From an uncultured Actinomycetota bacterium (GTDB lineage: Bacteria; Actinomycetota; Actinomycetes; Mycobacteriales; Mycobacteriaceae): a stretch of 64,000 nt of DNA. The translations under genes and the position numbers were made by a program. This document shows, piece by piece, positions 19,410 through 35,295 of this stretch; positions within the stretch are counted from its first letter, which is position 1; the number at the start of each line of letters is the position of its first letter. The notes beneath the pieces are model-generated. The model saw only the letters and a list, made by a program, of their open reading frames with translations. It was not told the DNA's origin and did not search any database. The stretch is from assembly GCA_963716465.1 (NCBI GenBank), contig CAVQTS010000010.1, forward strand, positions 2,657-66,656, in the 5' to 3' direction.

Positions 19410-20512
19410 GCGACTTCCTGGTTCCCGACCTCGGTGAGGGCCTGCTGGACGCCACGATCACCCGATGGGCCGTCTCGGTCGGCGACGTCGTCGAACTCAA
19501 CCAGACGCTGTGCACCGTGGAGACCAACAAGGCCGAGGTCGAGATCCCCAGCCCGTACGTCGGCCGGATCGTCGCCTTCGGCGGTGCGGAAGGCGAGACC
19601 CTGGCCGTCGGAACGTTGTTGGTGCGCATCGACACCGGTGGAGAGGAGAAACGCACGCCAGTTCTGGTCGGCTACGGAACCGACAACGGCATGGACCGCA
19701 GTCGACGGCCGCGTGCCGCACCGAAGGTCCGCAAGCTCGCCGCTGAGTTGGCCGTCGAGCTGTCCGGCCTGCAGCCCGGGTCGGGCGCCGACGGCATCAT
19801 CACCGACCAGGATGTGCTGGCGGCTGCGGGGTCTGATACTGAAACCATTGCAGTACAGGGTGTTCGGGCCCGGATGGCTACGCAGATGACGCTGTCGCGC
19901 AGCCGCATCCCCGACGCGCACGCCAGTGTTCAGGTGGATTGCTCTGCGCTACTGCGGTTGCGGGATCGGCTGGAGGTGACCCCCTTCGCCCTGACGTTGC
20001 GGATGCTCGTCATCGCACTGGGCCGTCATCCGGTAATCAACGCCACGTGGCTGGAAACCGAAGACGGCCCGCGGATTCAGCTGCATCGCGGCGTTCGGCT
20101 GGGCATTGCGGTGGCCACCGATCGGGGACTCGTGGTCCCGGTGATCCCCGACGCCGATACGCTGACCACGCGGCGGCTCGCGGCCGCAGTCGACGACACG
20201 GTCGAGCGGGCCAGGAGGGGCGCCCTTTCTCCAGCGGAACTCGGCGGGTCGACGTTCACGGTGTCCAACTTCGGTGCGCTCGGACTCGACGAAGGCGTTC
20301 CGGTGATCAACTACCCCGAAGCGGCGATCCTCGGAATGGGTTCGCTGAAGCCGAGGGCGGTGGTGGTCGACGACGCGGTGGTTGCCCGGCCGACGATGAC
20401 CTTGACATGCGCCTTCGATCACCGCGTCGCCGACGGCGCGCAGGCGGCGGCGTTCCTCGCCGACCTTCGTAGCCTGATCGAGGAGCCGGCGATCGCGCTG
20501 CTGGAACTCTAG
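19406..20512 (+). CDS. bkdC: dihydrolipoamide acyltransferase E2
   Basis: ETNKAEVEI lipoyl motif, DHRVADG catalytic motif. Confidence 0.92.
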
Positions 20513-22182
20513 GCCTGCGGGTAGGGCGCATAGCGCTTGTCGTAGGCCAGTTTTCGGGCCGCGAGTTGAGCCTGGCGCTCTGCTTCGGTGACGGTGGGGA
20601 GACCGCTGAGTTCGTTCAGCTTCACGACCTGAGAGCTGACGGTCGGGTCGACGTCGGAGGCCGGGTCGAAGTCCTGGAACCGGATCGAGATTGTGCCCTG
20701 GTTGAGGCCGCCGGTGGACACCCAGTTCGCCACACCGGGATCGGTGGGGGAGACGACGATCGTGTATGTGCCGTCGGCGTTCTTCACGGACTGGGCGATG
20801 TTGAGGCTGGTCTGCTGGTCCCAGTAGTTGCTGGTGATAGTCCAGTCATTGGTGACCGGAACGCTGAAATACCCTGCGTTGCCGGGATTGATCGTGATGA
20901 CCAGTGCCTCGTCGTCGGCAAGCTGGAAGTAACCGGCGCTCTGCAACTGGGTTGCCAGGAACGCCGCGTTGTGGTCGGGGCTCGACAGGACGTTGGGCGG
21001 CTGTTGCTTGCCGGTCACGGAATCGTTGGTCGCGACACCCATGTACTGGTTCTCTCCCTTGATGCCGAGAAGCAGCATGATCGCGGCGGTCTCGACCGAC
21101 TGCAGCAGTCGGGGGGCGGGAAGCGGCGGGATGATCGAGACCAGGCGGGTCAGCAGCGGGCTTTTCGAAACCAACGTGCCGATTCCCGGGAAGGCGAAGC
21201 CGCCGAACTGGCTGAACAGGCTGTCGGGGGGTCCGCTGACCCGCTGGATCGATAGACTCATCGGATCTTGAGTGGTCCAGTCCGACAATGTGTTTCGGGT
21301 GGTGATCAACGTCGCACCCGGCGCCAGATAGAGATGGTTGGTCTGCCCCGGCGCGGTCGGCGTGGAGTCGACGGTGATGCTGAACGAATTGTCCGCGTTC
21401 AGCACGAGGTCCTTGCCGTTGATGTTGTCGGCGGTCGCGCCGTTCAATCCGGTCAGGACGCTGAAGTTGGTGTCCGCCGGCATTCCGCCGCTGAACTTCC
21501 CGGTGATCACATAGGACGAGACGGTGTTGACCCCGACGAAGCGGTAGATGGTGTCGGGGTTGTCGTACCAGATTCTGGAACCGGCGAAGTCCTGGCCGTA
21601 CCAGCTGTGCGTCGGCGCAACCTGCTGAAAGATCTTGGGGTTGTTGGAGTCCAGCAGCTGAACCTCCATCGCGGCCTGATCCGCGTACTCGTCGACCGCC
21701 TGGTCCAACTGCGCGAGGTTCGCCTGGTCCGGGCCGCCGACGGCGGCGAAGTTCTTGTTCGCCGCTGCCCGCCAGCCGATCTTGAGTACTGCCTTGGAGA
21801 GCCGCACCGGCAGTGAGTTGGCGAGCCGCGTCGCGGTCTGCTCGCCGGCGAGCTGATCGGGTGTGGCGAGCACGCTGACGTCCTGGGCGTTCTGCGAAGC
21901 CTGGACCTGTTCGACTTCGCGGCGCGCGTAGGCGAGCGCATCGGAGACCGTGGCCGCCCCGGTCGGCTGCGCCGGGCGGGTCGGGGTCGCGCTGGCCGTC
22001 ACGTGCACGGTCCCGGTGGGTTTGGCTGGGTTTCGGTGCGCGCTCGCGCCGGCGGAGCTGCCGGTGTCGGCCGCCGCGACAGCGGTATTGCTGCCCACCG
22101 CGACGCCGACCCCGAGCGCGAATGCGAGCGCCCCGATCCGCCCGACATACCGTGCGTGGCGACTCTCTGTGGTGCGGCTCAC
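20509..22182 (-). CDS. secreted protein with C-terminal DUF1214-like domain
   Basis: Signal [43 protein letters not shown]. Confidence 0.7.
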
Positions 22183-22226
22183 ACAGCGGACTCTAAGTGT
22201 CCGGGGTGTCCATTACTATCGAACAC

Positions 22227-23483
22227 ATGTTCGAATTATTGTTGGATATCGACACCGGTGCCGATGAGTCGGCGCTGGTCGAGCGCATCGCCGCCCTCGA
22301 GCGGCTCAAGGCCGCGGCCGCGGCGGGGCAGGCGCGGCTGGCGGCCGCTCTGGACCAGGCGCGTCGGTCCGCCGAGGCGGCGGCCGGTGTTCCGGCCGCC
22401 CGACGCGGGCGAGGGGTGGCCACCGAGGTGGCTTTGGCGCGGCGGGACTCACCCGCTCGCGGTGGACGGCACCTGGGGTTCGCGAAGGCACTCGTTAACG
22501 AGATGCCTCACACCCTGGCCGCACTGGAGGACGGCGTGCTGTCGGAATGGCGCGCCACCATCGTGGTGCGGGAGTCCGCCTGCCTGGACGTCGAGGATCG
22601 CGGACGGCTGGACGCCGAACTGTGTTCGGGCCCGGCCGCGCTGGAGGGCCTCGGCGATGCGGCGTTGGCGGCGGCGGCCAAGGCGATCGCCTACCGGCTG
22701 GATCCGCATGCGGTGGTCGACCGTGCCGCCAAGGCGGAATCCGAGCGGACGGTGACCATCCGCCCGGCGCCCGACACGATGACCTATGTGACGGCACTGC
22801 TGCCGGTCGCGCAGGGGGTGTCGGTGTACGCGGCGCTCAAGCGGGAAGCCGACGTCTGCTTCGACGGGCGTTCTCGCGGCCAGGTGCTGGCCGACACTCT
22901 CGTCGAGCGGGTGACCGGCCGGCCGGCCGGCCAGGCTGTCCCGGTCACGGTCAACGTGGTGATCTCCGACCAGGCGCTCTTCGGGGTGGAGTCGGCATCG
23001 GCGGCGATCATGGGTTACGGCTCGGTGCCCTCGACGGTAGCGCAGAAGTTGGTCATCGACGCCGTCGCCGACGGGCGGTCGCGGGCCGCGCTGCGCCGGT
23101 TGTATGCCAGACCGGGCAGTGGAGCGCTGGTGGCCATGGACTCACGGTCGCGGCTGTTCCCCAAGGGCCTGGCCGACTTCATCGAGCTGCGCGACCAGCG
23201 CTGCCGGATGCCGTACTGCGACGCGCCCGTCCGGCACCGCGACCATGCCCAACCGCATCGCCGAGGCGGCTCCACCAGCGCGCTAAACGGCCTGGGCACG
23301 TGCGAAGCGTGCAACTACGCGAAGGAGGCGGCGGGCTGGAAGGTGGCGACGAGTATCAGCGAAAGCGGCAGGCACACAGCTGAATTCACCACACCGACCG
23401 GGTCTAACTACCAGTCAGTAGCACCGCCGGTGCCAGGCACAGCACCCGCGGCCGGAGAGTTCGAGGAGCTGAGCGTCGCCTGA
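22227..23483 (+). CDS. DUF222 + HNH endonuclease (REP13E12-type repeat element protein)
   Basis: MFE start, VTIRPAPDTMTY, RDQRCRMPYCDAP...DH...G...CEACN. Confidence 0.88.
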   Translation: MFELLLDIDTGADESALVERIAALERLKAAAAAGQARLAAALDQARRSAEAAAGVPAARRGRGVATEVALARRDSPARGGRHLGFAKALVNEMPHTLAALEDGVLSEWRATIVVRESACLDVEDRGRLDAELCSGPAALEGLGDAALAAAAKAIAYRLDPHAVVDRAAKAESERTVTIRPAPDTMTYVTALLPVAQGVSVYAALKREADVCFDGRSRGQVLADTLVERVTGRPAGQAVPVTVNVVISDQALFGVESASAAIMGYGSVPSTVAQKLVIDAVADGRSRAALRRLYARPGSGALVAMDSRSRLFPKGLADFIELRDQRCRMPYCDAPVRHRDHAQPHRRGGSTSALNGLGTCEACNYAKEAAGWKVATSISESGRHTAEFTTPTGSNYQSVAPPVPGTAPAAGEFEELSVA

Positions 23484-23485
23484 GC

Positions 23486-24232
23486 TCACTTCTGCCGGGC
23501 GGCAGCCAGCCGGGCCTTGAACTCCGGTGACTCGATCGACGCGGCCTGCGGGCCGAGCTCGATGTTCTTGGCGGCCTCGTGATGGTCAGTGTCGAAGAAG
23601 CCGGGGACAGCGGTGGCGCGCATCGACGCCTTGGTGGCCAGCACCACGTCGCGCGGCGCCGACGCGGGAGCTGCCGCGAGTTCGAGGGCCGCGGCCACCG
23701 GATCCTCGGCGACGCGCAGGGCCAAGCCGTGCCGCACGGCGGACTCGGCGTCGAAGCGCATGCCGAACAGCAGGGCCGCGCGGGCGACCTGCGGTCCGAC
23801 CGCGCGTTGCAACATCCAGGTGGCCCCGCCGCCGGGGTGGATGCCGAGCTTCTGGAAGCGCGGGTCGAACATCGCGTAGGGACCGGCGATGCGCACGTCG
23901 GCAGCCAGGGCAAGGTTGAGGCCGGCGCCGACCGCGGCGCCGTTGACCGCCGCGATGGTCGGCAGGGTGCAGCGGCCGACGGCCATGAAGCCCGCGTAGA
24001 TGCGTTCGAGGCCCTCGGTGGCGGCGGCGCCGAGCGCGGACAGGTCGGCGCCTGCGCAGAACGCCTTGCCGGCGCCGGTCACCACGACGGCGTGCGCCTC
24101 GGCCTCGGCGGCCTCGACGGCGGACCGCAGCTGCTGCGACATCGCGTCGGTGACCGCATTGCGGCGGTCCGGATCGTTGACGGTGATCAGCGCGACGCGA
24201 TCGCGGACTTCATAGAGAACCAAATCAGCCAC
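23486..24232 (-). CDS. echA14: enoyl-CoA hydratase
   Basis: [37 protein letters not shown]; synteny. Confidence 0.88.
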
Positions 24233-24429
24233 AACCGAGAGGCTAACAATCATCGCCCCTTCGATGTTGGGGCGGTTGCCGGGCAGGGCGGCGGCACGAC
24301 GGTGCCACGCCAGCTCCTGAATTTCTGGTGTCAATTTGGCTAAACGCACCCATATTTACGGAGGCGCAGATTTGATGAATCCGATTGAATTGAGCGGCGC
24401 GTTTCGGTGCCTGTCAGAAGGGACGTTGG

Positions 24430-25089
24430 ATGGCCACGATCGATGCAGAACCCTTCCCCCTGGACTTCGATGTCGACAGCACCGCGCTGCTCATCATCGA
24501 CATGCAGCGCGATTTCGTGCTGCCCGGCGGCTTCGGTGAAGCCCTGGGCAACGACACCTCGCTGCTGCTCGCCGCCGTCGAGCCCATCCAGCGGGTGCTC
24601 GAACGTGCTCGCGACATCGGCATGTTCGTGATCCACACCCGCGAAGGCCACCGGCCGGACCTCACCGACTGTCCAGCGGCGAAACTCACCCGCGGCGGTA
24701 AGACCTTCATCGGCGAGGACGGCCCGATGGGCCGCATCCTGGTCCGCGGCGAGCAGGGCCACGACATCATCCACCAGCTGTATCCCATCGAGGGCGAACC
24801 GGTGATCGACAAGCCGGGCAAGGGCTCGTTCCACGCCACCGACCTGCAACAGATCCTCTTCGATCGCGGCATCAAGACGCTCGTGGTGTGCGGCGTGACG
24901 CTCGAGGTCTGCGTCCACACCACCGTGCGCGAGGCCAACGACCGAGGCTACGAGTGCGTGGTCCTGTCCGACTGTGTGGCCTCCTACTTCCCGGAGTTCC
25001 AGCGAGTCGGCCTGGAGATGATCAAGGCCCAGGGCGCGATCTTCGGCTGGGTGTCGGATTCCGAGCGCTTCCTGGCCGCCACGTCCTAG
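24430..25089 (+). CDS. isochorismatase-like cysteine hydrolase of the TrtA/BiuH group, TrtA (triuret hydrolase)-type signature
   Basis: D-K-C triad ([20 protein letters not shown]) plus [24 protein letters not shown]. From memory these match TrtA rather than BiuH (GGYVDHMGYD, DVCV, GATDYGNH, QGGVFG). Confidence 0.8.
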
Positions 25090-25153
25090 CAACCGCGCGC
25101 CGAAGGGGGTTGTCGGCGAACGGATTCGTCCTCTCTGAGCAGAAGGCCACAGC

Positions 25154-26716
25154 ATGAGCACCAACTCGCGTTTCTACCCCAACCTCTACAAGGACTCCGT
25201 GTCCTTGATGACGGTCTCGGCACAGGTGACGTCCATACCGGGCATCGAAGCAGCGTCGGTGGTGATGGCCTCGGCCACCAACGTCGACAACCTCGCCCAA
25301 GCCGGACTGGGCACCTTCGACGTCCGGCCCAACGACCTGGTGGTCGCCGTCTCCGGCACCGACGAGGCCTGCGAGGAAGCTCTGGCGCTGGCCGACCAAC
25401 TGCTCTCCGCGGCACCCGGTGGCGGGGGCGAGGAGACCAGCGCGGCCGCGCCGACCACCAGCATCCAGATGGCCGTCACCAAGGACCCCGCTCTGAACCT
25501 CGCCTTGGTGTCGGTGCCCGGCGACTACGCCGCGGCCGAGGCCATGAAGGCGCTGCGGCTGGGCCTGGACGTGATGATCTTCAGCGACAACGTGACTCCC
25601 GACGCGGAACTGGCGCTCAAGGAGTACGCCCGCGAGGTCGACCTGATGGTCATGGGGCCCGACTGCGGGACCTCAATCGTCAACGGCATCCCGCTCGGCT
25701 TCGCCAACGTGGTGCGCCGCGGACCGATCGGGGTGGTCGGAGCGTCCGGAACCGGCACCCAGGAGGTCACCGTCCGGGTCCACCAGAACGGATCGGGGAT
25801 CTCCCAGGCTCTCGGCACCGGCGGACACGACCTGGCCGACGCCATCGGCGGCATCTCGATGCTGCACGGCCTGGCCGCCCTCGACGGCGACCCGGGCACC
25901 TCGGTGATCGTGCTGGTGTCCAAACCCCCGTCACCGGACGTCGCCGCCAAGGTGCTCTCGGCCGCCGAGGCCAGCGACAAGCCGGTCGTCGTCATCTTCC
26001 TCGGCGCCGATCCCGCCTCGATCACCCGCAACGGCGTCTACGGTGCGGCCTACCTGGCGCAGGCCGCGGACATGGCGGTGGAGTTGGCCCGCGGCGAAGA
26101 GCCGCACTCCGGTGAGATCACCGTCTCGAACGAAATGCGGCGCACGCTCAAGGATCTCGCCCGGTCGATGGCCCCGAGTCAACGTCATGTGCGCGGCATC
26201 TTCTCCGGCGGCACGTTCTGTTACGAGGCCCAGCTGGTGCATCGCGCCCGAGGCATCTCCGCCTACTCCAACACCCCGGTGAAAGGCAACAGCGCGCTGG
26301 ACGACATCCGCAAGAGCCTGGAGAACACCATCGTCGACATGGGTGACGATGAATTCACCCAGGGCAGACCGCATCCCATGATCGACCCGTCCCAGAAGGA
26401 CGCCCGCATCCGCGACGAAATCGCCGACCCCACAACGGCTGTCGTGCTGTTCGACGTGGTGCTGGGTTACGGATCCGCCGATGACCCGACGGCGGAACTG
26501 ATCTCGATCATCGGGTCGTCGAAGGCCAAGGCCCGCGCCGCGGGCAGAAACGTGGCGTTCATCGGTTACGTCTGCGGCACCGATCTGGACCCGCAGGACC
26601 GCGCGAAAGCCGTGGCCGGCCTCAAGTCGGCCGGTGTGCTGGTCGCCTCGAGCAACGCCGAGGCTGCCGTCTGGTCGGCGGCGCTGATCGCCGAGCGAGA
26701 AGGAGTCGGCAAGTGA
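25154..26716 (+). CDS. fdrA: FdrA/AllF/YahF-like acyl-CoA-synthetase-fold protein
   Basis: YKDSVSLM, ALVSVPGDYAAAEA, MGPDCGT, IGVVGASGTG, DMGDDEFTQGRPHPMIDP. Confidence 0.9.
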   Translation: MSTNSRFYPNLYKDSVSLMTVSAQVTSIPGIEAASVVMASATNVDNLAQAGLGTFDVRPNDLVVAVSGTDEACEEALALADQLLSAAPGGGGEETSAAAPTTSIQMAVTKDPALNLALVSVPGDYAAAEAMKALRLGLDVMIFSDNVTPDAELALKEYAREVDLMVMGPDCGTSIVNGIPLGFANVVRRGPIGVVGASGTGTQEVTVRVHQNGSGISQALGTGGHDLADAIGGISMLHGLAALDGDPGTSVIVLVSKPPSPDVAAKVLSAAEASDKPVVVIFLGADPASITRNGVYGAAYLAQAADMAVELARGEEPHSGEITVSNEMRRTLKDLARSMAPSQRHVRGIFSGGTFCYEAQLVHRARGISAYSNTPVKGNSALDDIRKSLENTIVDMGDDEFTQGRPHPMIDPSQKDARIRDEIADPTTAVVLFDVVLGYGSADDPTAELISIIGSSKAKARAAGRNVAFIGYVCGTDLDPQDRAKAVAGLKSAGVLVASSNAEAAVWSAALIAEREGVGK

Positions 26717-28131
26717 AGAAGCTCTTCGAAGAAGACCTCAAGGTCGTCAACATCGGCCTGCAGGGATTCGCCAACAACATCACCGCGGCAGGTGGTCAGG
26801 TCACCAACATCACCTGGGCCCCGCCCGCGGGCGCCGACGCGGCGCTGGGCTGGACGCTGGCCAACCTGGTGGGCGACCCCCGCATCGCGGAGGCCAACCG
26901 GGTTGCCTACGACCGCTACCTCGGCGCGCAGCCACGACTGGTCGACCTCGTCCGCGCCACCGAGGCGATCCCCGGACTTGGACCGGGGGAGCGCCGCATC
27001 CTGCATTCGGGGCCGCCGATCGCCTGGCCCGACATGTGCGGCCCGCAACGCGGGGCGATCGCGGGCGCCATCCTCTACGAGGGCTGGGCCGACGATCTCG
27101 AAGCCGCTGAGAAGCTCGCCGAAAGCGGTGCGGTGGCGCTGGATCCGTGCCACGAGCACGGCGCCGTCGGACCGATGGCCGGCATCATCAGCCCGTCGAT
27201 GCCGGTGTGGGTGGTGGAGAACACCGCGGCGGGAAACCGTGCCTACTGCAACCTCAACGAAGGTCTGGGCAAGGTGCTGCGGTTCGGCGCCAACTCCCCG
27301 GAGGTGCTGGACCGGCTGCGCTGGCTGGGTAGCGACTTCTTCGAGACCATGCAGGTCGCGGTGCGCGGGCTGGCCGACCCCGACCTCAAACCACTGATGG
27401 CGCAAGCGCTGCACATGGGCGACGAGCTGCACAACCGCAACGCCGCAGCCTCGGCGCTGCTGTTCAAGCGGCTGACCTTGTCGCTCCTGGCCTCGGACCT
27501 GCCCGCCGACGCGGTGCGCCGGGCGCTGGAGTTCGTCGCCGGCAACGACCACTTCTTCCTCAACGTGTCGATGGCGGCGTGTAAGTCGATGACCGACGCC
27601 GCCGCCGGCGTGGCGGGCAGCAGCATGGTGACGGTGATGGCCCGCAACGGGGTGAACTTCGGCATCAAGCTCAGCGGAACGGGTGACCAGTGGTTCCAGG
27701 CACCTGCCAATCCCGTTGACGGCCTGTACTTCCCGGGTTACACGGTCGAGGACGCGGCGGCCGACCTGGGAGACTCGGCGATCACCGAGACCAACGGCCT
27801 GGGCGGGTTCGCGATGGCCGCGTCACCGGCGATCGTGCAGTTCGTCGGTGGCACACCCGCCGACGCGACGGCCAACAGCCGCCGGATGCTGAGCATCACC
27901 CTCGGCGCCAACCCGGCATTCACGTTGCCGCCGTTGAACTTCGGCGGAACCCCGGCGGGCATCGACGCCCGGCTGGTGGTGGACTCCGGGGTGTTGCCGA
28001 TCATCAACACCGGTATCGCTCACCGGCTGGCCGGCGTCGGGCAGATCGGCGCCGGCATCACCACCGCCCCGATGGAGTGTTTCAACGAAGCGCTCGCGGC
28101 GCTGGCCGCCGACCTGGGAGCGGGCAAGTGA
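26713..28131 (+). CDS. DUF1116 (YlbE/AllG/YahG-like) protein
   Basis: LHSGPPI.W..MCGPQRGA, MGDELHNRN, GNDHFFLN, DLGDSAITE, INTGIAH. Confidence 0.9.
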   Translation: MKKLFEEDLKVVNIGLQGFANNITAAGGQVTNITWAPPAGADAALGWTLANLVGDPRIAEANRVAYDRYLGAQPRLVDLVRATEAIPGLGPGERRILHSGPPIAWPDMCGPQRGAIAGAILYEGWADDLEAAEKLAESGAVALDPCHEHGAVGPMAGIISPSMPVWVVENTAAGNRAYCNLNEGLGKVLRFGANSPEVLDRLRWLGSDFFETMQVAVRGLADPDLKPLMAQALHMGDELHNRNAAASALLFKRLTLSLLASDLPADAVRRALEFVAGNDHFFLNVSMAACKSMTDAAAGVAGSSMVTVMARNGVNFGIKLSGTGDQWFQAPANPVDGLYFPGYTVEDAAADLGDSAITETNGLGGFAMAASPAIVQFVGGTPADATANSRRMLSITLGANPAFTLPPLNFGGTPAGIDARLVVDSGVLPIINTGIAHRLAGVGQIGAGITTAPMECFNEALAALAADLGAGK

Positions 28132-29501
28132 GCACCGCGATCGTGGCCTTCGGCGGCAACGCACTGGTCACCGACGCCGAGCACGATTCGATCCCGCAGC
28201 AGTACGAGACCGTCAGCCGCACGGTGCCGCCGCTGATCGACATGGTCGAGCAGGGTTGGAAACTCGTTGTCTCCCACGGCAATGGACCCCAGGTGGGATT
28301 CATTCTGCGCCGCTCCGAGCTCGCCGAGGACGAGGTGGATCCCGTCCCGGTCGACTACGCCGTCGCCGACACCCAGGGCGCGATCGGCTACATGTTCGTC
28401 AAGGCGTTGCGCAACGAGCTCGCCCGGCGCGGGTTGTCCCGGCCCGTCGTGGCGGTGGTCACCCACTCTGTGGTGAGCCTCGACGATCCCGCGTTCCAGA
28501 ACCCGACCAAACCGGTCGGGTCCTTCCTCGAGGAGGCCAAGGCCAAGGAGATGGCGGCCACGCTCGGCTGGACCATCGCCGAGGACGCCGGGCGTGGATG
28601 GCGCCGTACGGTCGCTTCGCCACAACCCACCGAGATTCTTGAGACCGACCTGATCCGAAGTCTGCTCGACGACGGGGCGATCGTGGTGGCGGTCGGCGGT
28701 GGCGGCATCCCGGTCGCGGTGGAATCCGACGGGACCGTGGTCGGCGTGGAAGCCGTGGTGGACAAGGACCTTGCCTCCGGTCTGCTGGCCCACGACCTGG
28801 GCGCCGACCTGCTGATGATCCCCACCGGCGTGCCGCGGGTCGCCATCGGCTTCGGCACCCCCGAGGAGAAGTGGCTGGACTCGATCACCGTCGAGGAGGC
28901 CCGCGACTACATCGCCTCCGGCCAGTTCGGCAAAGGCTCGATGGAACCCAAGGTCGAGGCCGTCGCCGACTTCGTCGCCACGACGCCGGGTGCCACCGGC
29001 GTCATCGGTGCCGCCGAGGAGATCCCGGCGATCCTGGCCGGAACATCCGGAACCCGGATCGTCGGCGACAGCGCAGCCGCCAAACCGGCTGCGCAGCACA
29101 CCGATAGCGGGGCAGTGCTGTTGGCGGTCAACGGCACCTTGATGCGCGGGCTGAAACTCTCGCCGAACATGGCGGCCGCAGGCGCCTCGTTCGTCCGGGA
29201 GATTACCACCGAACCGGTCTACCGGATCTGGACCGTCAACGACGACCACCCCGCGATGATTCGGGTAACCGACGGCTCGGGAGTGGCTGTCGCCGTTGAG
29301 GTCTGGTCGGTCCCGGCCGCGGGTCTGGCCGGAATCCTGCTCAACGAGCCCCCGGGGCTGTCGATCGGCAAGGTCAACCTCGCCGACGGATCGACGGTGC
29401 TCGGCGTGATCGCAGAGCCGGCCCTCGTCGAAGGCCAACGCGAAATCAGTCACCACGGCGGTTGGCGGGCTTACACCGCCGCGGAGGGAGTTTCGTCATG
29501 A
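28128..29501 (+). CDS. carbamate kinase fused to an allophanate-hydrolase C-terminal-like domain
   Basis: N-part AFGGNAL, SHGNGPQVG, ADTQGAIGY, GGGGIPV, VVDKDLAS, GSMEPKV. C-part of about 130 aa: LAVNGTLMRG...YRIW...VEVW..P...IGKVNLADG...ISHHGGWRAY. Confidence 0.88.
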   Translation: MSTAIVAFGGNALVTDAEHDSIPQQYETVSRTVPPLIDMVEQGWKLVVSHGNGPQVGFILRRSELAEDEVDPVPVDYAVADTQGAIGYMFVKALRNELARRGLSRPVVAVVTHSVVSLDDPAFQNPTKPVGSFLEEAKAKEMAATLGWTIAEDAGRGWRRTVASPQPTEILETDLIRSLLDDGAIVVAVGGGGIPVAVESDGTVVGVEAVVDKDLASGLLAHDLGADLLMIPTGVPRVAIGFGTPEEKWLDSITVEEARDYIASGQFGKGSMEPKVEAVADFVATTPGATGVIGAAEEIPAILAGTSGTRIVGDSAAAKPAAQHTDSGAVLLAVNGTLMRGLKLSPNMAAAGASFVREITTEPVYRIWTVNDDHPAMIRVTDGSGVAVAVEVWSVPAAGLAGILLNEPPGLSIGKVNLADGSTVLGVIAEPALVEGQREISHHGGWRAYTAAEGVSS

Positions 29502-30445
29502 CCATCATGGGCAAGAACGTGTTGCCCGAAGCGCAACTCGGCAGCCTTCCGTTCTGGCGGCAGTACCTGAGGGGCTTCTCGCAGTGCGCGTTTCAGGCCA
29601 ACGAGATCACCGGCCTGCTCTTCGTCATCGGGGTGCTGACCTATGACTGGCGCATGGCGGTGTTCTACGTCATCTCGGTGCTCATCGCGACCGTTGTGGC
29701 GCGGCTGCTCAAGGCCGACCGCACGCTACTGGATCTCGGGCTGTTCGGTTTCAACTCCGGCCTGATGGGCCTGGCTATGGGCAACTTCTACCAACCTGGC
29801 ATAGCGCTGTGGGTGTGGGTGATAGTGCTGGCCGCCGTGGTCGCCGTGGTCGCGGTCGCGATGTCCAAGTTGCTGCCGTTCCCGTTCCTGGCGGCGCCTT
29901 TCATCGTGACCTTCTGGCTCATCTGGTTCATCGCCGACGCCCGCCCGGAACTGGTCAAGCTCGACTTCGGACCGTGGCCGGTGGAGAACGTGCGGTGGGG
30001 CACCGCGCTGATCGACGCCTTGGGTGCAACATTGTTCGCACCGGCAATCCTGACCGGGGTGTTCTTCTTACTCGGTGTACTGGTCAGCAACTGGCGCCAC
30101 GCGGTGATCGCCGTGGTGGCCGCCTTCATCGCCGTCGCGATCGCCGCCCATGTCGGCACCGCGGGAGGGGCCATCAACACCGGGTTCGTCGGCTTCAACG
30201 CCGTGCTGGCCGCGCTGGGCGCCGCCGCTGTGCTGGATGGTGACCTGCGTCTGGCCATCCTGGCCGCACTACTGGGCACCTGGTTCTTCAGCTACATCAA
30301 TCGCAACGCACCGGTTCCGGCACTGGCGTCGGGATTCGTTCTCGCCGTCTGGGCGGTGATGGTGCTCGACTGGCTGCACCGGCGATTCGGCCCTGGGGCG
30401 CATCAGGATTCAGCGCCACCGGCAACCGAGTCGGTCAGCGCTTGA
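29498..30445 (+). CDS. urea transporter (UT-family channel)
   Basis: LRGFSQCAFQAN..TG, GLFGFNSGL and GFVGFNAVL internal repeat halves, PFLAAPF; about 10 TM. Confidence 0.85.
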   Translation: MTIMGKNVLPEAQLGSLPFWRQYLRGFSQCAFQANEITGLLFVIGVLTYDWRMAVFYVISVLIATVVARLLKADRTLLDLGLFGFNSGLMGLAMGNFYQPGIALWVWVIVLAAVVAVVAVAMSKLLPFPFLAAPFIVTFWLIWFIADARPELVKLDFGPWPVENVRWGTALIDALGATLFAPAILTGVFFLLGVLVSNWRHAVIAVVAAFIAVAIAAHVGTAGGAINTGFVGFNAVLAALGAAAVLDGDLRLAILAALLGTWFFSYINRNAPVPALASGFVLAVWAVMVLDWLHRRFGPGAHQDSAPPATESVSA

Positions 30446-30788
30446 GCGGGCTGTAGAAGACGATGCCATTGCCCTTGGTGTCGTAGACCACGGCGCGACG
30501 CTCGTGCGCGTCGTCATACGGGCCTTTGACGATGCCGCCGCCGCTTTCCTCCACGGCTTTGGCCGCGGCGTCGACGTCGGCGGTCTTGATGCCGACCACG
30601 ACCTGTCCCGGAATCGGATGGTCGATCTCGGTGGCGAGCGCCAGGGTGACCGGGCCACCGTCGAGTGCTGCGAAATGCGTTCCGTCCCGAAATTTCAGCG
30701 CCATTCCCAAGGTGTCGCTGTAGAACCGGATCGACTCGTCCAGGTCGTCAGTGGACAGGATGACCATCTTGACTTCGTGGTCGCTCAC
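30435..30788 (-). CDS. VOC/glyoxalase family protein
   Basis: DLDESIRFYSDTLG...DVDAAAKAVEESGG...AVVYDTKGN. Confidence 0.85.
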   Translation of the reverse strand: MSDHEVKMVILSTDDLDESIRFYSDTLGMALKFRDGTHFAALDGGPVTLALATEIDHPIPGQVVVGIKTADVDAAAKAVEESGGGIVKGPYDDAHERRAVVYDTKGNGIVFYSPLKR

Positions 30789-31022
30789 GGGTGCCTCCTC
30801 TGGCTGAATCCAGCGCCCTCGACAGGTTGGCTGGCAGCGCGATTGTAACGACTGCGTTCACGCGGGCCCCGAGGCGATGAACCCCGGACGGGTCGGCCGC
30901 GGGCTGGCGGTGAGTAGAAGCGTTTCCCACAGTCTGAAGTCCCTGCCCGGCCCCAGAATCAGCGCAATCGGCTCGGTTCCTTTAATCTCCTTGAATAGTC
31001 AATCGCTGACCACGGGGATCTG

Positions 31023-31745
31023 GTGATGGATAGCGACGGCCCGCGACGAGAGGCGGACGTAATGAGCACCGCCGGATCGGCACGTGGCGCGGCGCGCCGG
31101 ACGGTACTTGGCACACTGGTGTCCGCTTCAATAGCGACGGCAGTGAGCTCGGCCGGCGTTGCCGATGCTACGTGCACGTTGGTGCGCGGCACCGGCGCGG
31201 ACGCGCGGTGCAGCAGCGCCCCGTCCAGCTTCGCAGCCCCGCTCGACTCGAGATCGTCGGTGTCGGCCCAGGGCAGCCTGGACGGCACCGCCGCGGGTGC
31301 CAGCAGGAGTAATGCCGCCGCGGGTGTTTCGCCCAGCCCCAGCAACGTCGCCACCGCCAGCGCGGGCGGTAATCCTGTGATGGTCGCCGAGAGCATGTTG
31401 GGCACGGACCAGTTCGGCGCCTATGGCTGCGAAGATTTCGTCGACGCCGCCTATGGCCTCACCACCGCCACCGGCATTGGTCACGACGCGGCATTGTCCT
31501 TCTACCAGTCGCTGGCCGACCGCGGGCTCGACCATCACGAAATGCCCGTCCCGCGCGGTGCACTGGTGTTCTCGGCAGGTCCCGATGGGAACCATGTCGA
31601 CATCTCTCGGGGCGACGGCACGTATGTTTCCGGCGGCGTACAAGGACTTTCGCCCGGTTACGGGGACGGCCACGACGTGCAGATCCTGCCCAGCCCCAAC
31701 CTTGGCTCGTGGACGATGTACGGCTGGGTCTACCCCCCTTGGTAG
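31023..31745 (+). CDS. secreted protein with C-terminal NlpC/P60- or CHAP-like domain; start may be 31062
   Basis: RRTVLG signal, Ala/Ser linker, GCEDFV and NHVDIS as candidate Cys/His dyad, YGWVYP end. Confidence 0.55.
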   Translation: MMDSDGPRREADVMSTAGSARGAARRTVLGTLVSASIATAVSSAGVADATCTLVRGTGADARCSSAPSSFAAPLDSRSSVSAQGSLDGTAAGASRSNAAAGVSPSPSNVATASAGGNPVMVAESMLGTDQFGAYGCEDFVDAAYGLTTATGIGHDAALSFYQSLADRGLDHHEMPVPRGALVFSAGPDGNHVDISRGDGTYVSGGVQGLSPGYGDGHDVQILPSPNLGSWTMYGWVYPPW

Positions 31746-32087
31746 GACGGTGTCGGTAGGCGCGCCGGCGTGTATCCGGCGGGCTAGGGCCGCCTCGGTG
31801 GGGTCAAGGGACGTCGGACGACCAATGGACTGACCGCGGGCGCGGCGGGCCTTGCGGGCTGCGCGCGCCGCGCTCGGACGGTCAAATCATCACCAAGACG
31901 AACCCCGGTATCGCAATCAATGGCTTCCGGGTGGGTGGGGCCGGAAAGTAGGCCCAGCGCCTTGGCGTCTACTCACCGCGCAGCAGCAATACCGTGCGGC
32001 CGTCACGCGGCCCCTCATTCACCCGGGCCATGCGCAAGACGTGTCCGGTCACGGCAGCAGGAGCGCAGTCAGTCCTGGACCCTCGGA

Positions 32088-32462
32088 TCAGTAGTTGGTG
32101 CAGGTGTTGGCCACCTGCATGATCTCCTGCTGGCCCTGCGGTCCGATCGCCGAGGCGATCATCTGTTGCATCTGGGGGTTGTTGGCCTGCTGCTGGGCGA
32201 TCAGCGCCTGGCGCTGATCGATCGGCAGGGCCAGGAACTGCTGCAACCTGGTCTGCATCTGCGGCCGGTTGTTGAGCATGGTGGCCAGATCGGGTGCCTG
32301 CGCATTGAGCGCGGAGGTGATCTGGGCGTAGCTGCAGGTGGTGGTGGCCAATGCGGCCGTGATCGGATCGGCCGATGCCTGGCCGGCTGCCGGTGTCAGG
32401 ACGATCGCGGCCAGCAGGGCGCCGCCGACGGCGACACCGCCTAGCAGACGTACAGATGTCAT
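32088..32462 (-). CDS. secreted hemophore-related (Rv0203-like) protein
   Basis: Signal peptide, then ADPITAALATTTCSYAQITSAL...LQQFLALP...VANTC. Confidence 0.8.
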   Translation of the reverse strand: MTSVRLLGGVAVGGALLAAIVLTPAAGQASADPITAALATTTCSYAQITSALNAQAPDLATMLNNRPQMQTRLQQFLALPIDQRQALIAQQQANNPQMQQMIASAIGPQGQQEIMQVANTCTNY

Positions 32463-32607
32463 GAGACACGTGCCCTTTCTTCCGATGAGGAATAAGCCGT
32501 CGAGAGTGTGAAGGTAAGTTAACCATCGACGGCGGGATTTTGCGAGTCCAACTAGCAACAGTTTCGAAATATTACCGGTCGAGTAAGTGAGCGAACGCCA
32601 ATCCGCG

Positions 32608-33342
32608 TCAGGTGGAGTTCTCCTGTGAGTAGCTGTTGTTGAGGTTGTCCTGTAGGACGTGCGCGCTGGTCGTGGTGGTGAGGACATCCAGCGGTGCGGA
32701 CAGGGTCCGGACGTCGTATTTCCATCCGGCCGGCAGGGTCAGTCGGGACGCCAGGCCCGGCAGATCGGCTTGCGAGAGTGTGGGGTCCGTCTTCTGGCTC
32801 CAACTCTGCATGACCCAGCGTGTCCCGTTCGGTTCCACCAGTTCGTAGACCTGCTGTCCGGCGTCGAAGGTGAACTCGGCTCCGCGATTCACCGCGTGCG
32901 GGGTGTAGGGCCGCGCCGCCGTCACCGGATTGCCGATGTCCACCGTGGCTTCCTTGCGCATCGCGATCCCGCCGAAGGTCGTGGTTTGGCCCGCCGCACC
33001 GTCCTTGGCGATGGAGTCCATCAGCCAGTACCGCGGTCCATTGAGCACCGCGGTGAGCGCGCCGTTGTCGTCGGCGATCTTGTCGGCATCCAGCGCCGCC
33101 CACTGCGGCTGCGGGCAGTCGTTCAGCCCATAGGAGTTGTACACATCGGCGCTCAACCCGCTCAGGCCCGCGTGGACGAGAAGGACCTCGCAATACCGTT
33201 TGCCCCGCAGGTCGGTGGCCACAACGTGGGTTGTGACCGATGTCGTCGGGGCGGGCGCCGGCCCGGTGCCGCACGCCGCGCCGGTCAGGATCGCCGCGAC
33301 GATCCCCAGGGTCGCGGCGAACCGGTGCCGGTGAGATCTCAT
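32608..33342 (-). CDS. putative lipoprotein of unknown function
   Basis: Signal ending ILTGAAC; globular domain RYCEVLL...NDCP...GPRYWLMD. Confidence 0.7.
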   Translation of the reverse strand: MRSHRHRFAATLGIVAAILTGAACGTGPAPAPTTSVTTHVVATDLRGKRYCEVLLVHAGLSGLSADVYNSYGLNDCPQPQWAALDADKIADDNGALTAVLNGPRYWLMDSIAKDGAAGQTTTFGGIAMRKEATVDIGNPVTAARPYTPHAVNRGAEFTFDAGQQVYELVEPNGTRWVMQSWSQKTDPTLSQADLPGLASRLTLPAGWKYDVRTLSAPLDVLTTTTSAHVLQDNLNNSYSQENST

Positions 33343-33421
33343 GGCGGCAAGTAAAGCACCGCCGGCGATATTATGCGAGTGCGACTAGCAATATCTCCGG
33401 TCGGCCTCTACCCTGTTCGAC

Positions 33422-34070
33422 GTGAGCGCAGAACCCGTTGACGTCAGTGGCGATGTGGGCGTGCAACCGGACGGACGGCGGGCGCGGCGCGAGCGCGGCA
33501 GGCAGGCGGTGGTCGACGCGGCATTCGCGCTGATTCTGGAAGGCAAGATCCCCCCGTCGGCGCAGGATGTTGCCGAGCGGGCCGGGGTGTCGGTCTCCTC
33601 GGTGTTCCGCAACTTCGATGGCCTGGCCGACCTGCAGGGTCAGGCCTTGGATCGATTCCGTTCCCGCTATTCGCATTTCGTCGCCGCCAGGCCCGCACCG
33701 GGTGCGGATCTTGACTCGCGAATCGGATTTCTTTGTGCGCCAACGGGTGAGCCTCTATGGGCAAGCCGGACCGTTGTTGATGCTGGCGCGGACCCGCGCA
33801 TTGGACCACAACACCATGGCAGAGGCGGTCGCCCACAACCGTGCCGCCCTCGCGGCCCAGACGCAAGAGTGCTTCCGGGCCGAAATCGCCTCGCGGACAA
33901 TGACAGCCGCATCAGATCTGGTATCACTGCTGGACGCGCTGACGTCTCCGGAGGCCTTCGAACTGATGACCAGGACCCATGGCCGGTCTGCCCGACAGAT
34001 CACCCGGTCGTGGCGGTTGGGGCTGCGGGAGTTGATCGCCGGGTGGCCACACGTACGGCCACCGCACTAG
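33422..34070 (+). CDS. TetR-family regulator with +1 frameshift at TTT 33728-33730 (error or pseudogene)
   Basis: DGRRARRERGRQAVVDAA...VAERAGVSVSSVFRNF continues in another frame as FFVRQRVSLY...DALTSPEAF; span 649 = 3n+1. Confidence 0.8.
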
Positions 34071-34144
34071 CCGCCGGCGACAGGATCGTCACCGGATGAG
34101 CCCAGCCTTAGATTTCGCGCCGAACGCCTGAGGGGAGACCGTCG

Positions 34145-34789
34145 ATGATGTCCGGGTGGTGGGTGTGGCTGGTGGCGGCCGTGCTCTACGGTGCCTTTCG
34201 ATTGTTCTATGACAACTGGCGTGGCAGGCTGACGCCGGTCGAGATCGAGGCCCTGCTGGCCCAAGCCGAGGCACAGGGCGCGGGCGAGGTGAATGATCTG
34301 TCGATCGTGCGCACCTTCCTCGAAGAAGACGACGGCCGCGAATTCATCATGGTCAATCTGGTCCGGGTGCCCGACACCACGGTCACTGATCCTGACACCG
34401 GGGAACAGGTGCCGGCGCGGGCGATGATGCAGGCCTATTCCAAAGCATTCATGCCGCTGCTGCTGCGACACGGCGGCCATCCGGCGCTGGCGACCCGCAA
34501 AATCGGCGGCTACGTCGATTCCTGGCTGGTGGGCCCCGATCCGGGCTGGAGCATCGTCGGCTTCATGCGCTACCGCTCGCGCCGCGACATGCTCAAGATG
34601 GTGCTCGACCCCGCCTTCGAGGCCGCCCACAAATACAAACCGCTCGGGGTCGCCGAGACCTTCTCCTTCCCGACCCAGCCCTTCCTGCGCACCTACGTCA
34701 GCCCGCGCATCTCGGTGTTCCTGATCCTCGCCCTGGCCGCCGCGCTCGCGCAGTTGGCGATCATCGCCACCACCGGATGTGTTCTGTGA
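34145..34789 (+). CDS. membrane-anchored protein with DUF1330/dimeric alpha-beta barrel-like domain
   Basis: TM at both ends, DDGREFIMVNL, MRYRSRRDML. Confidence 0.6.
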   Translation: MMSGWWVWLVAAVLYGAFRLFYDNWRGRLTPVEIEALLAQAEAQGAGEVNDLSIVRTFLEEDDGREFIMVNLVRVPDTTVTDPDTGEQVPARAMMQAYSKAFMPLLLRHGGHPALATRKIGGYVDSWLVGPDPGWSIVGFMRYRSRRDMLKMVLDPAFEAAHKYKPLGVAETFSFPTQPFLRTYVSPRISVFLILALAAALAQLAIIATTGCVL

Positions 34790-34851
34790 GCACCGGGACC
34801 GCCCCGCTTCATGGTGGGCCGCGCCGGCACGTCGTGTGCGGCGGCGATCTC

Positions 34852-35295
34852 TCAACGACTATGTGACAGCAGTACTTGCAATGTCTCGCGCAAGGCGTCC
34901 AGGCGGTGTTGCCCGAGGATCTCTTGCCACAGGTGTTCGCGATCGACGGCGTTGGAGCGCATCACATGTAGCGCTTGGTGGCCGCGCGGTGTCAATGCGA
35001 TACCCAGAGCCCGCGCGTCCTCGACGTCGGGTGATCGCGCGACGTAGCCGTGCCGTTCCAGCACTTTGACGGCCTGGGCTACGGCTTGTCGGCTGACGCC
35101 GAGCCGGTCGGCGAGTTCGGAGGCATGCAGTGGGCCCGCCGCGAGCGGCACCAGGGCCATCGCCTGTGCTGGGCGAATACCGTCGAGGCCGGCGGCGGCG
35201 AATGCGGCCCGCAGGCCAGGTCCGCCGCCGGCCGCCAGCATCTGCACCAGCGCGGGCACCGTCGGCTGCCACTCTCTATCGGAAACATCGCCCAT
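34852..35295 (-). CDS. MarR-family regulator
   Basis: ASELADRLGVSRQAVAQAVKVLERHGYVARSPDVEDARA...LTPRG. Confidence 0.85.
   Translation of the reverse strand: MGDVSDREWQPTVPALVQMLAAGGGPGLRAAFAAAGLDGIRPAQAMALVPLAAGPLHASELADRLGVSRQAVAQAVKVLERHGYVARSPDVEDARALGIALTPRGHQALHVMRSNAVDREHLWQEILGQHRLDALRETLQVLLSHSR

Follow-up and report, generated by a model that had tools for sequence, protein, structure and literature searches.

The window analyzed here is a stretch of 64,000 nucleotides (64 kb; G+C content, ~67%) from an uncultured actinomycete of the Mycobacteriaceae, and its element in question is a run of five open reading frames (ORFs) of 219, 520, 472, 457, and 315 codons on the plus strand at positions 24430-30445. 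Gene 1 (24430-25089; 219 amino acids [aa] in the product) encodes a TrtA-like cysteine hydrolase of the isochorismatase family. Gene 2 (25154-26716; 520 aa) encodes an AllF/FdrA-type subunit resembling the alpha subunit of succinyl-CoA synthetase, and gene 3 (26713-28131; 472 aa) encodes the AllG subunit, formerly DUF1116. In gene 4 (28128-29501; 457 aa), a carbamate kinase (residues 1-312) is joined to an AH_C/gamma-glutamylcyclotransferase (GGCT)-like domain (residues 331-450; nucleotides 29118-29477), and gene 5 (29498-30445; 315 aa) encodes a channel of the urea transporter (UT) family. Judging from homology and from the composition of related operons, this operon may carry out a catabolism of triuret-type urea oligomers that gains adenosine triphosphate (ATP) via 1-carboxybiuret and carbamoyl phosphate, a reading to which we give an even chance. 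The gene set itself, called the module below, is real, widely conserved, and mobile.

Overlapping stop and start codons join genes 2 and 3 (GTGA at 26713), genes 3 and 4 (GTGA at 28128), and genes 4 and 5 (ATGA at 29498), and a Shine-Dalgarno-like AAGGAG, GGGAG, or AGGGAG precedes each of these three junctions. Genes 2-5 are thus translationally coupled. An earlier note on this DNA had described five co-directional genes, the last four coupled through such junctions, and all ORFs and junctions were found as it stated. It had also placed the start of the operon right after echA14. An enoyl-CoA hydratase gene does adjoin gene 1, but it lies on the minus strand (23486-24349), so that the two genes diverge from an 80-bp spacer (24350-24429), the presumed promoter/operator region. 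For all genes, the ratios of nonsynonymous to synonymous substitution (dN/dS) lay at 0.08-0.19 in comparison with two Mycolicibacterium loci and reached 0.26 in comparison with a metagenome-assembled genome (MAG) of Mycobacterium that is more distant; by this measure, all operon genes are under purifying selection.

When the whole 64-kb window was searched by tblastn with reference proteins, no second TrtA/BiuH-type (isochorismatase-type) hydrolase, no AtzD, and no NCS1 permease of the Escherichia coli CFT073 type (one reference protein) was detected. Nor was an amidase-signature domain of AtzF found, AtzF matching only at 29112-29483. The absence of a second cysteine hydrolase and of an amidase-signature allophanate hydrolase, claimed in the earlier note, is therefore confirmed by this search for the entire window. 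The claim that the cluster lacks urease agrees with the assignment of all five cluster ORFs to other families, urease not having been searched for window-wide.

The distribution of the module was surveyed by a species-level genome scan with an AllG alignment, which returned 575 relatives. The best 80 loci (at least 64% identity) were annotated by tblastn and with a hidden Markov model (HMM) for AllH, and the 64 with enough flanking sequence to judge form the basis of the counts below; single loci are cited by L numbers. These best 80 of 575 include Mycobacterium, Mycolicibacterium, other Actinomycetes, Burkholderiales, Caballeronia, Rhodobacterales, Serratia, Edwardsiella, Rahnella, Lelliottia, Silvimonas, Dyella, and one Acidobacteria MAG. 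AllF, AllG, and the kinase were present in all 64 loci, a TrtA-like hydrolase in 62, AH_C in 60, AllH in 40, a CFT073-type NCS1 permease in 25, UT in 6, and an AtzD-like gene in 2. The (AllH)-AllF-AllG-carbamate kinase-AH_C backbone is kept across Actinomycetota, Alpha-, Beta-, and Gammaproteobacteria, and Acidobacteria. The order hydrolase-AllH-AllF-AllG-kinase/AH_C-UT was observed in Acetobacteraceae and on an Acidimicrobiales-type contig, and hydrolase-AllF-AllG-kinase/AH_C, without AllH and UT, in Mycolicibacterium psychrotolerans and a Mycobacterium MAG. At least 80 species-level loci share the gene order, and dN/dS is low; the arrangement is therefore no chance juxtaposition.

On the chromosome of E. 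coli CFT073 (L012, 4527206-4535402), the order is hydrolase-DUF2877-fdrA-DUF1116-arcC-"allophanate hydrolase-related protein"-cytosine permease-LysR. This unfused form of the module was found in 1,560 of 5,426 complete E. coli genomes (~29%), mostly on the chromosome and also on plasmids. The K-12-type allFGHK set was present in 5,424 of the 5,426 genomes and coexists with the module in ~1,560. The earlier note had seen the novelty in the combination of genes and the implied substrate. The combination, however, is not rare: ~29% of complete E. coli genomes carry it, and a crystal structure exists for its AH_C protein (PDB 5C5Z). Of the five genes listed in the note, those for AllF, AllG, and the kinase occur in all 64 loci and the hydrolase gene in 62, but UT in just 6.

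Gene 1 (PF00857, 147.6 bits) has as its best PDB match TrtA of Herbaspirillum (6XIX, 268.9 bits, ~60% identity); the match to BiuH (6AZO) was 229 bits with 52% identity, and the score against the NCBIfam BiuH equivalog NF050097 was 268.7 bits, under the cutoff of 370. The Asp-Lys-Cys triad (D24 and the equivalents of K129 and C162) is present, as are the equivalents of the cis-peptide residues V157 and T158. Six positions differ between the TrtA and BiuH consensus sequences, being F35, N41, E160, Y187, I205, and A134 in TrtA (Tassoulas et al., PMC7948467), and A134S is the one change among them that was not deleterious in TrtA (PMC7948467). Gene 1 is of the TrtA type at five of the six (F35, N41, E160, Y187, and I205) and has the BiuH-type Ser at position 134; the BiuH-type residues Y35, Y41, D160, T187, and V205 are not present. 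The same five TrtA-type residues were found in all eight module hydrolases aligned, with Ser or Ala at position 134.

A neighbor-joining tree rooted with RutB was then built from 19 sequences, namely gene 1, 7 module orthologues, 5 TrtA-position and 5 BiuH-position proteins, and RutB, with 100 bootstraps. The module, TrtA, and BiuH hydrolases formed three clades with 100% support each, and the module clade was sister to TrtA in 96 of 100 bootstraps, with BiuH outside. Identity between gene 1 and TrtA proteins is ~50-60%, and canonical TrtA proteins share 58-75% among themselves. These results indicate that the name "TrtA-like" given in the earlier note is correct, but in this tree the hydrolase falls in a sister clade rather than in the TrtA clade proper. 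No BiuH or AtzF was found with it in the window. The predicted reaction of gene 1 is triuret to 1-carboxybiuret and NH3. A guanylurea-hydrolase-type identity was considered and rejected, as the P. mendocina pMET-2 hydrolase used for comparison is just 49% identical and has other pocket residues. That protein, possibly of the guanylurea type (GuuH), is more distant.

Gene 2 scored 462.6 bits against the NCBIfam FdrA model (cutoff, 433) and contains CoA_binding and Ligase_CoA domains; gene 3 scored 307.9 bits against PF06545 AllG (cutoff, 27). In E. coli, AllFGH catalyzes the reversible conversion of oxalurate and phosphate into carbamoyl phosphate plus oxamate, and AllK then makes ATP, as shown experimentally (PMC11326118). 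Compared with the CFT073 module proteins and with the K-12 proteins, respectively, identities were 52% and 40% for AllF, 65% and 47% for AllG, and 60% and 40% for the kinase. AllF of the window is ~35 residues shorter than that of K-12 (520 versus 555 aa) and AllG ~53 residues longer (472 versus 419 aa), and within the N-terminal stretch of AllG (residues 1-57; nucleotides 26713-26880), residues 6-51 correspond to positions 508-553 of the FdrA model, its C-terminal end. By these matches and lengths, a segment of ~50 residues has moved across the AllF/AllG gene boundary relative to K-12, as expected of subunits of one complex.

The likeness to AllFGH raises the alternative that oxalurate is the substrate of AllF-AllG and the kinase here, just as in K-12, with the hydrolase supplying oxalurate or clearing a side product derived from another purine oxidation product. 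Scores above the NCBIfam FdrA and Pfam AllG cutoffs are in line with it, and so is published annotation: a co-location of biuH or trtA with allFGHK, the biuH case being in ammonia-oxidizing archaea, was reported in 2025 and read as oxalurate catabolism (PMC12625717). However, the window proteins are 40-47% identical to K-12 AllF, AllG, and AllK as against 52-65% to the CFT073 module, and the ~1,560 E. coli genomes with the module carry the K-12-type set alongside it. The coexistence of the two sets as paralogues at this level of identity argues against a common substrate. Moreover, no allantoin genes were found in the window or in related loci, and the partners, a TrtA-like hydrolase and AtzD (see below), point to carboxybiuret. 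We regard the oxalurate alternative as improbable.

AllH is required for most oxamate formation in E. coli (PMC11326118). Neither tblastn with three AllH proteins nor the HMM, which was built from 41 AllH (DUF2877) sequences and detects AllH in 40 of the 64 related loci, revealed AllH in the window or in any Mycobacterium-type locus. It is also absent from four other loci (three proteobacterial isolates and one Casimicrobiaceae MAG), and L095 showed a weak, short match (29.6 bits). In related operons, AllH usually lies between the hydrolase and AllF genes, a position that corresponds to 25090-25153 in the window. We considered an AllH hidden in the window or fused to AllF or AllG and rejected it, as both searches were empty and the lengths of AllF and AllG equal those in AllH-containing loci. 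These lengths, together with dN/dS of 0.08-0.19, indicate that AllF and AllG are maintained.

The kinase part of gene 4 is a full-length amino-acid-kinase fold and scored 339.5 bits against NCBIfam PRK12352 (above the cutoff of 266) and 350.3 bits against TIGR00746 (slightly below the cutoff of 358.25). The earlier note had recognized a carbamate kinase fusion, which is indeed present, but had left the partner unnamed; the partner is AH_C (PF21986, 128 bits), with a weak Pfam GGACT match as well. Residues 313-453 match just the C-terminal part of allophanate hydrolase (AH) models, and no amidase-signature N-terminal domain is present. The tail matched PDB 5C5Z with 153 bits (~62-65% identity) and the AH structure 4GYR with 63 bits. 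We take 5C5Z to be c4763, a uropathogen-specific protein of E. coli CFT073; it was deposited as "Glutamyl-tRNA amidotransferase", a name that looks like a misnomer. The kinase-AH_C fusion was found in more than 120 protein clusters at an identity of at least 73%. Among the loci, AH_C is fused to the kinase in ~25 belonging to a Mycobacterium-centered subclade and is a separate gene elsewhere. In a Burkholderiales MAG (L037, 11433-12900), the AH_C gene stands ahead of the kinase gene, and the kinase is of another subtype (56% identity to CFT073).

A catalytic His is said to have been proposed by Fan et al. in 2013 in the C-domain of K. lactis AH; from the chain numbering, we take it to be His492 of the GAH motif. 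In the AH_C domain, the residue aligned with this His is Leu338, without exception in 75 module sequences. Also invariant in the 75 are N335, T337, R340, Y365, W368, H374, R379, E391, W393, and E407, and E358, R366, and D372 are conserved in 97-99% of them. The dN/dS of the domain is ~0.10, and its VNGTLMRG motif and weak GGACT match recall GGCT-like proteins. The near-universal presence, the purifying selection, and a conserved polar set of its own suggest that the AH_C domain is probably functional, without the His proposed for the AtzF type. Its role is a guess, either decarboxylation of an N-carboxy product or scaffolding.

We next compared the first genes of the 64 loci. The two loci without the hydrolase, those of Dactylosporangium salmoneum and of a Klebsiella michiganensis plasmid contig, are exactly the two that carry AtzD, a coincidence with a chance of 1 in 2,016, ignoring phylogenetic dependence. 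Both AtzD proteins scored above the NCBIfam equivalog cutoff for cyanuric acid amidohydrolase (575 and 539 bits; cutoff, 360); barbiturase was rejected on the strength of these scores, with no direct comparison with barbiturase. The Dactylosporangium type was found again on a metagenome contig, in the order PucR-AtzD-NCS1-AllH-AllF-AllG-kinase-AH_C. The enterobacterial type is a unit bounded by insertion sequences (a 411-aa hypothetical membrane protein-AtzD-NCS2-AllH-AllF-AllG-kinase) and occurs in 48 plasmid records at an identity of at least 95%, as in C. freundii pE11_001 (201197-210126, L101; also L091). Among its hosts are Citrobacter, Klebsiella, Enterobacter, and Aeromonas, with a hospital shower as one of the sources.

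The next-closest AllG relatives of Dactylosporangium in named genomes, from Cryobacterium and Blastococcus (72% identity), lie in hydrolase-headed operons. The AtzD-headed loci beside close relatives headed by the hydrolase suggest that the first enzyme was exchanged on a constant backbone. TrtA, acting on triuret, and AtzD, opening the ring of cyanuric acid, give the same product, 1-carboxybiuret (PMC7948467). Since AtzD takes the place of the hydrolase and yields the same product, the phosphorolysis module appears tied to the triuret/cyanurate branch. The layout of the loci also bears on an anabolic function, in which the kinase would make carbamoyl phosphate and AllF-AllG would carbamoylate an acceptor and so build a ureide. 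The oxamic transcarbamylase reaction runs readily both ways and has been assayed toward synthesis (PMC11326118), which would permit this, but the layout is catabolic, with a hydrolase or ring-opening amidohydrolase first, uptake permeases, and LysR, GntR, or PucR regulators, and no biosynthetic partners are present. An anabolic function is thus hardly credible.

In the pathway that we propose, ATP would be won by substrate-level phosphorylation, and not all bonds would be hydrolyzed. The hydrolase would remove the terminal amide of triuret to give 1-carboxybiuret and NH3, as close homology and the active-site residues suggest. AllF-AllG, without AllH, would then pass the carbamoyl group at the end of the N-carboxy-ureide on to phosphate (1-carboxybiuret + phosphate -> carbamoyl phosphate + allophanate), by the chemistry that turns oxalurate into oxamate; this step is proposed because of the homology to E. 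coli AllFGH and the replacement of the hydrolase by AtzD. The kinase domain would make ATP from carbamoyl phosphate and adenosine diphosphate, its established family function, and the carbamate would decay to NH3 and CO2. The fourth step is the weakest and a guess: the AH_C/GGCT-like domain would handle the N-carboxy leaving group, most likely converting allophanate to urea. Alternatively, it may keep the enzymes close to each other for the channeling of labile intermediates, or a second phosphorolysis may follow (allophanate + phosphate -> carbamoyl phosphate + carbamate). In a fifth step, also a guess, the UT-family channel, which occupies the slot of nucleobase-type permeases, would admit a small, neutral, planar substrate or release urea.

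By structural formula, 1-carboxybiuret (H2N-CO-NH-CO-NH-COO-) would be oxalurate (H2N-CO-NH-CO-COO-) plus one NH, and allophanate would be oxalurate minus one CO. Carboxylated intermediates are favored over biuret because they are closer analogues of oxalurate and are the products of the upstream enzymes. The presence of biuH beside allFGHK in ammonia-oxidizing archaea fits allophanate as a possible substrate. Tentatively, and with somewhat less than even confidence, we extend the proposal to a widespread, mobile "carboxy-ureide phosphorylase" pathway, in which AllF-AllG types would cleave 1-carboxybiuret and perhaps allophanate with a yield of one or two ATP per molecule of triuret or cyanuric acid, the AH_C/GGCT-like domain would be a new leaving-group enzyme, and E. 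coli could feed on uric acid oxidation products.

The earlier note had preferred biuret as the compound cleaved. Its logic is partly supported, in that the AllF/AllG/kinase set is distinct from the oxalurate enzymes, being 40-47% identical to the K-12 set and coexisting with it, but biuret as the species phosphorolyzed is not supported. In that version, 1-carboxybiuret would lose CO2, spontaneously or through AH_C, AllF-AllG would phosphorolyze biuret to carbamoyl phosphate and urea, and urea would leave through UT, with the same net stoichiometry as in the preferred order (one carbamoyl phosphate, one urea, and one CO2). The occurrence of AH_C in 60 of 64 loci, the translational coupling of the UT gene to the kinase gene in the window, and the failure to find BiuH in the window are consistent with it. 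AH_C is, in addition, akin to a domain for which action on an N-carboxy compound has been suggested. Decarboxylation of 1-carboxybiuret has a half-life of ~20 min, and the canonical pathways carry a decarboxylase (PMC7948467, PMC12625717). By contrast, the sole characterized relative acts on the carboxylated ureide oxalurate, and biuret has no carboxylate; the equivalent of the proposed catalytic His in AH_C is Leu; some loci keep BiuH beside the module (L052); and 58 of 64 loci have no UT, which never occurs together with the CFT073-type NCS1 permease (25 loci). We therefore consider the cleavage of biuret itself rather unlikely and retain the N-carboxy-ureides as the preferred substrates.

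Gene 5 scored 157.3 bits against PF03253 UT and 118.7 bits against the NCBIfam Yut equivalog (cutoff, 274.6), and its match to the Desulfovibrio urea channel 3K3F, in two partial stretches, was 107 bits. With the UT proteins of the Acetobacteraceae and Acidimicrobiales-type modules, it shares 58-61% identity. In 25 of 64 loci, a CFT073-type NCS1 permease follows AH_C, never together with UT. Across the loci, the transporters associated with the module are NCS1, NCS2, UT, or an unclassified protein of ~520 aa with 10-12 predicted transmembrane segments, which follows AH_C in several loci (L076, 13110-14657; L082, 5467-7044; L096, 12801-14417; L052, 14503-16185) and has no Pfam or NCBIfam match. 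This protein may represent an unclassified transporter family. One reading of the different transporter families after AH_C is a common role in substrate uptake, and another is the release of urea.

The variety of these transporters is also compatible with a pathway of the same logic acting on a different natural substrate, another acyl-urea or ureide and maybe a product of uric acid or pyrimidine oxidation that enters through nucleobase-type permeases. In line with this, the module hydrolases are a clade of their own with 100% support and ~60% identity to TrtA, and E. coli is enriched for the module, avian isolates and plasmids included. Such a substrate seems unlikely to us, though, as all five second-shell residues for the triuret specificity of TrtA are kept and the AtzD alternative lies above the equivalog cutoff for cyanuric acid hydrolase.

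Several observations weigh against the pathway via 1-carboxybiuret. At ~60% identity and in a clade apart from TrtA, the hydrolase could have some other acyl-urea as its true substrate. Neither the window nor any of the 20 Mycobacterium-type loci has AllH. The role of the AtzF C-domain is itself disputed, between breakdown of N-carboxycarbamate and the formation of quaternary structure or complexes, and the His of its GAH motif is replaced by the invariant Leu338 in the module. Just 6 of 64 loci have UT, a family whose channels are known to pass solutes of the size of urea. The exchange of the hydrolase for AtzD rests on two or three independent lineages. Finally, some loci (L052) keep a full BiuH/AtzF hydrolytic set beside the module, and comammox Nitrospira likewise has the module beside a full BiuH/AtzF set (PMC12625717); in those organisms, the module is thus an addition and not a replacement.

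The proposed pathway shares features with several known systems. Like AllFGH and AllK of K-12 (PMC11326118, PMC9843812), it has homologous AllF, AllG, and kinase genes in the same order, and it is predicted to phosphorolyze an N-acyl-urea to carbamoyl phosphate and then to make ATP. Unlike the K-12 system, the window genes (40-47% identity) lie outside an allantoin cluster, are accompanied by a TrtA-like hydrolase and AH_C, lack AllH, and have the AllF/AllG boundary shifted by ~50 residues. The same module stands in E. coli CFT073 as an uncharacterized operon (C_RS22495-22530), with identities of 71% for the hydrolase, 52% for FdrA, 65% for DUF1116, 60% for the kinase, and 62% for AH_C; in contrast to the window, AH_C is separate there, AllH is present, and an NCS1 permease and a LysR gene take the place of UT.

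The triuret pathway TrtA-(TrtB)-BiuH-AtzF of Herbaspirillum and Rhizobium (PMC7948467) has a closely related first enzyme that shares the triad and the residues determining specificity, and 1-carboxybiuret is the predicted intermediate in common. Its operons, however, include genes for BiuH, AtzF, a BMP-type ABC transporter, and a formamidase, as well as a small gene of the cupin or HpxZ-like kind, none of which is in the window operon, and the downstream steps in the window are predicted to be phosphorolytic and to yield ATP. We considered AH_C as a stand-in for the small gene after TrtA and rejected it, since the Sulfitobacter gene encodes a cupin without similarity to AH_C. That gene, annotated as "allophanate hydrolase" on Sulfitobacter pontiacus plasmid p2 (L018, 9653-10000), shares 56% identity with the cupin found at this position in Rhizobium; the P. 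luteola slot after TrtA holds an HpxZ-like protein instead of a cupin.

The cyanuric acid pathway AtzD-AtzEG-AtzH-AtzF, reportedly described by Esquirol et al. in 2018, also handles 1-carboxybiuret and allophanate, its AtzF has an AH_C domain, and AtzD heads variants of the module; unlike the module, it is fully hydrolytic, without carbamoyl phosphate and without a kinase. The arginine deiminase pathway, with a catabolic ornithine transcarbamylase and carbamate kinase, likewise derives ATP from a ureido compound via carbamoyl phosphate, but the fold of its transcarbamylase is unrelated and its substrate is citrulline. In the literature searched, we found no description of a phosphorolysis of triuret, biuret, or carboxybiuret. 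The logic of ureide to carbamoyl phosphate to ATP is known; what would be new is the substrate class, the AH_C partner, and the form without AllH.

The module also appears to have moved between distant hosts. Module proteins of Mycobacterium-type Actinomycetota (24430-29501 in the window) are 75-88% identical to those of Acetobacteraceae, Burkholderiales, and Rhodobacterales MAGs (L002, L040, L037-L042), and the synonymous divergence in these cross-phylum comparisons (dS, ~0.55-0.88) is no larger than among mycobacteria. These results suggest a recent inter-phylum transfer of the whole operon. In E. coli, the module was found on 78 plasmid records, many from poultry, with IncF conjugative plasmids among the carriers. 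On pACN001-B (L013), an iron-type ABC transporter and a colicin-immunity-like region are ~4 kb away from it. The fdrA/ylbE genes in a urinary tract infection transcriptome paper are the K-12-type b0518 and b4572 and not the module. A literature search under CFT073 locus tags, which were guessed by numbering outward from c4763, gave no usable matches.

If the proposal is true, N-carboxy-ureides derived from triuret and cyanuric acid would be a new class among the very few compounds from which ATP is obtained via carbamoyl phosphate. Triuret and biuret occur as impurities in fertilizer, cyanuric acid is used in pools and also arises in the breakdown of triazines, and the environmental fate and energetics of all three would need revision. 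An operon that stands without annotation in ~1,560 complete E. coli genomes, in many soil actinobacteria and proteobacteria, and on conjugative plasmids would be given a function, as would crystal structure 5C5Z, which was deposited without one. The "oxalurate genes" beside biuret genes in nitrifiers could be read in another way, and uropathogenic and avian E. coli could use uric acid oxidation products in urine and bird excreta. A further question would be how mycobacterial AllF-AllG can do its work when AllH is missing.

Finally, the surroundings of the operon were examined. No sigma-70 consensus or Rfam element was found in the 80-bp spacer, a result that is uninformative for a high-GC actinobacterium, and no riboswitch, promoter, or terminator was found near the operon; the sole Rfam/ARAGORN match in the window is a tRNA-His (GTG) gene at 2775-2848 on the minus strand. 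No ureide-metabolism genes are among the immediate flanks. Downstream lies a convergent glyoxalase-family gene (30435-30788), and the following ~4 kb (30900-35000) contain long ORFs on both strands, 14 of which were tried as candidates and gave no Pfam match. Upstream, between the genes for a 2-oxoacid dehydrogenase E2 component and the hydratase (20509-23483), lie a DUF222-type gene and one with just a weak, below-cutoff DUF1214 match. In M. psychrotolerans, a MarR/AHSA1-type regulator stands instead between the E2 and enoyl-CoA hydratase genes, and a 1,205-aa BTAD/AAA regulator lies between the hydratase gene and the operon. This comparison places the operon at the same chromosomal site in both organisms, with variable insertions.

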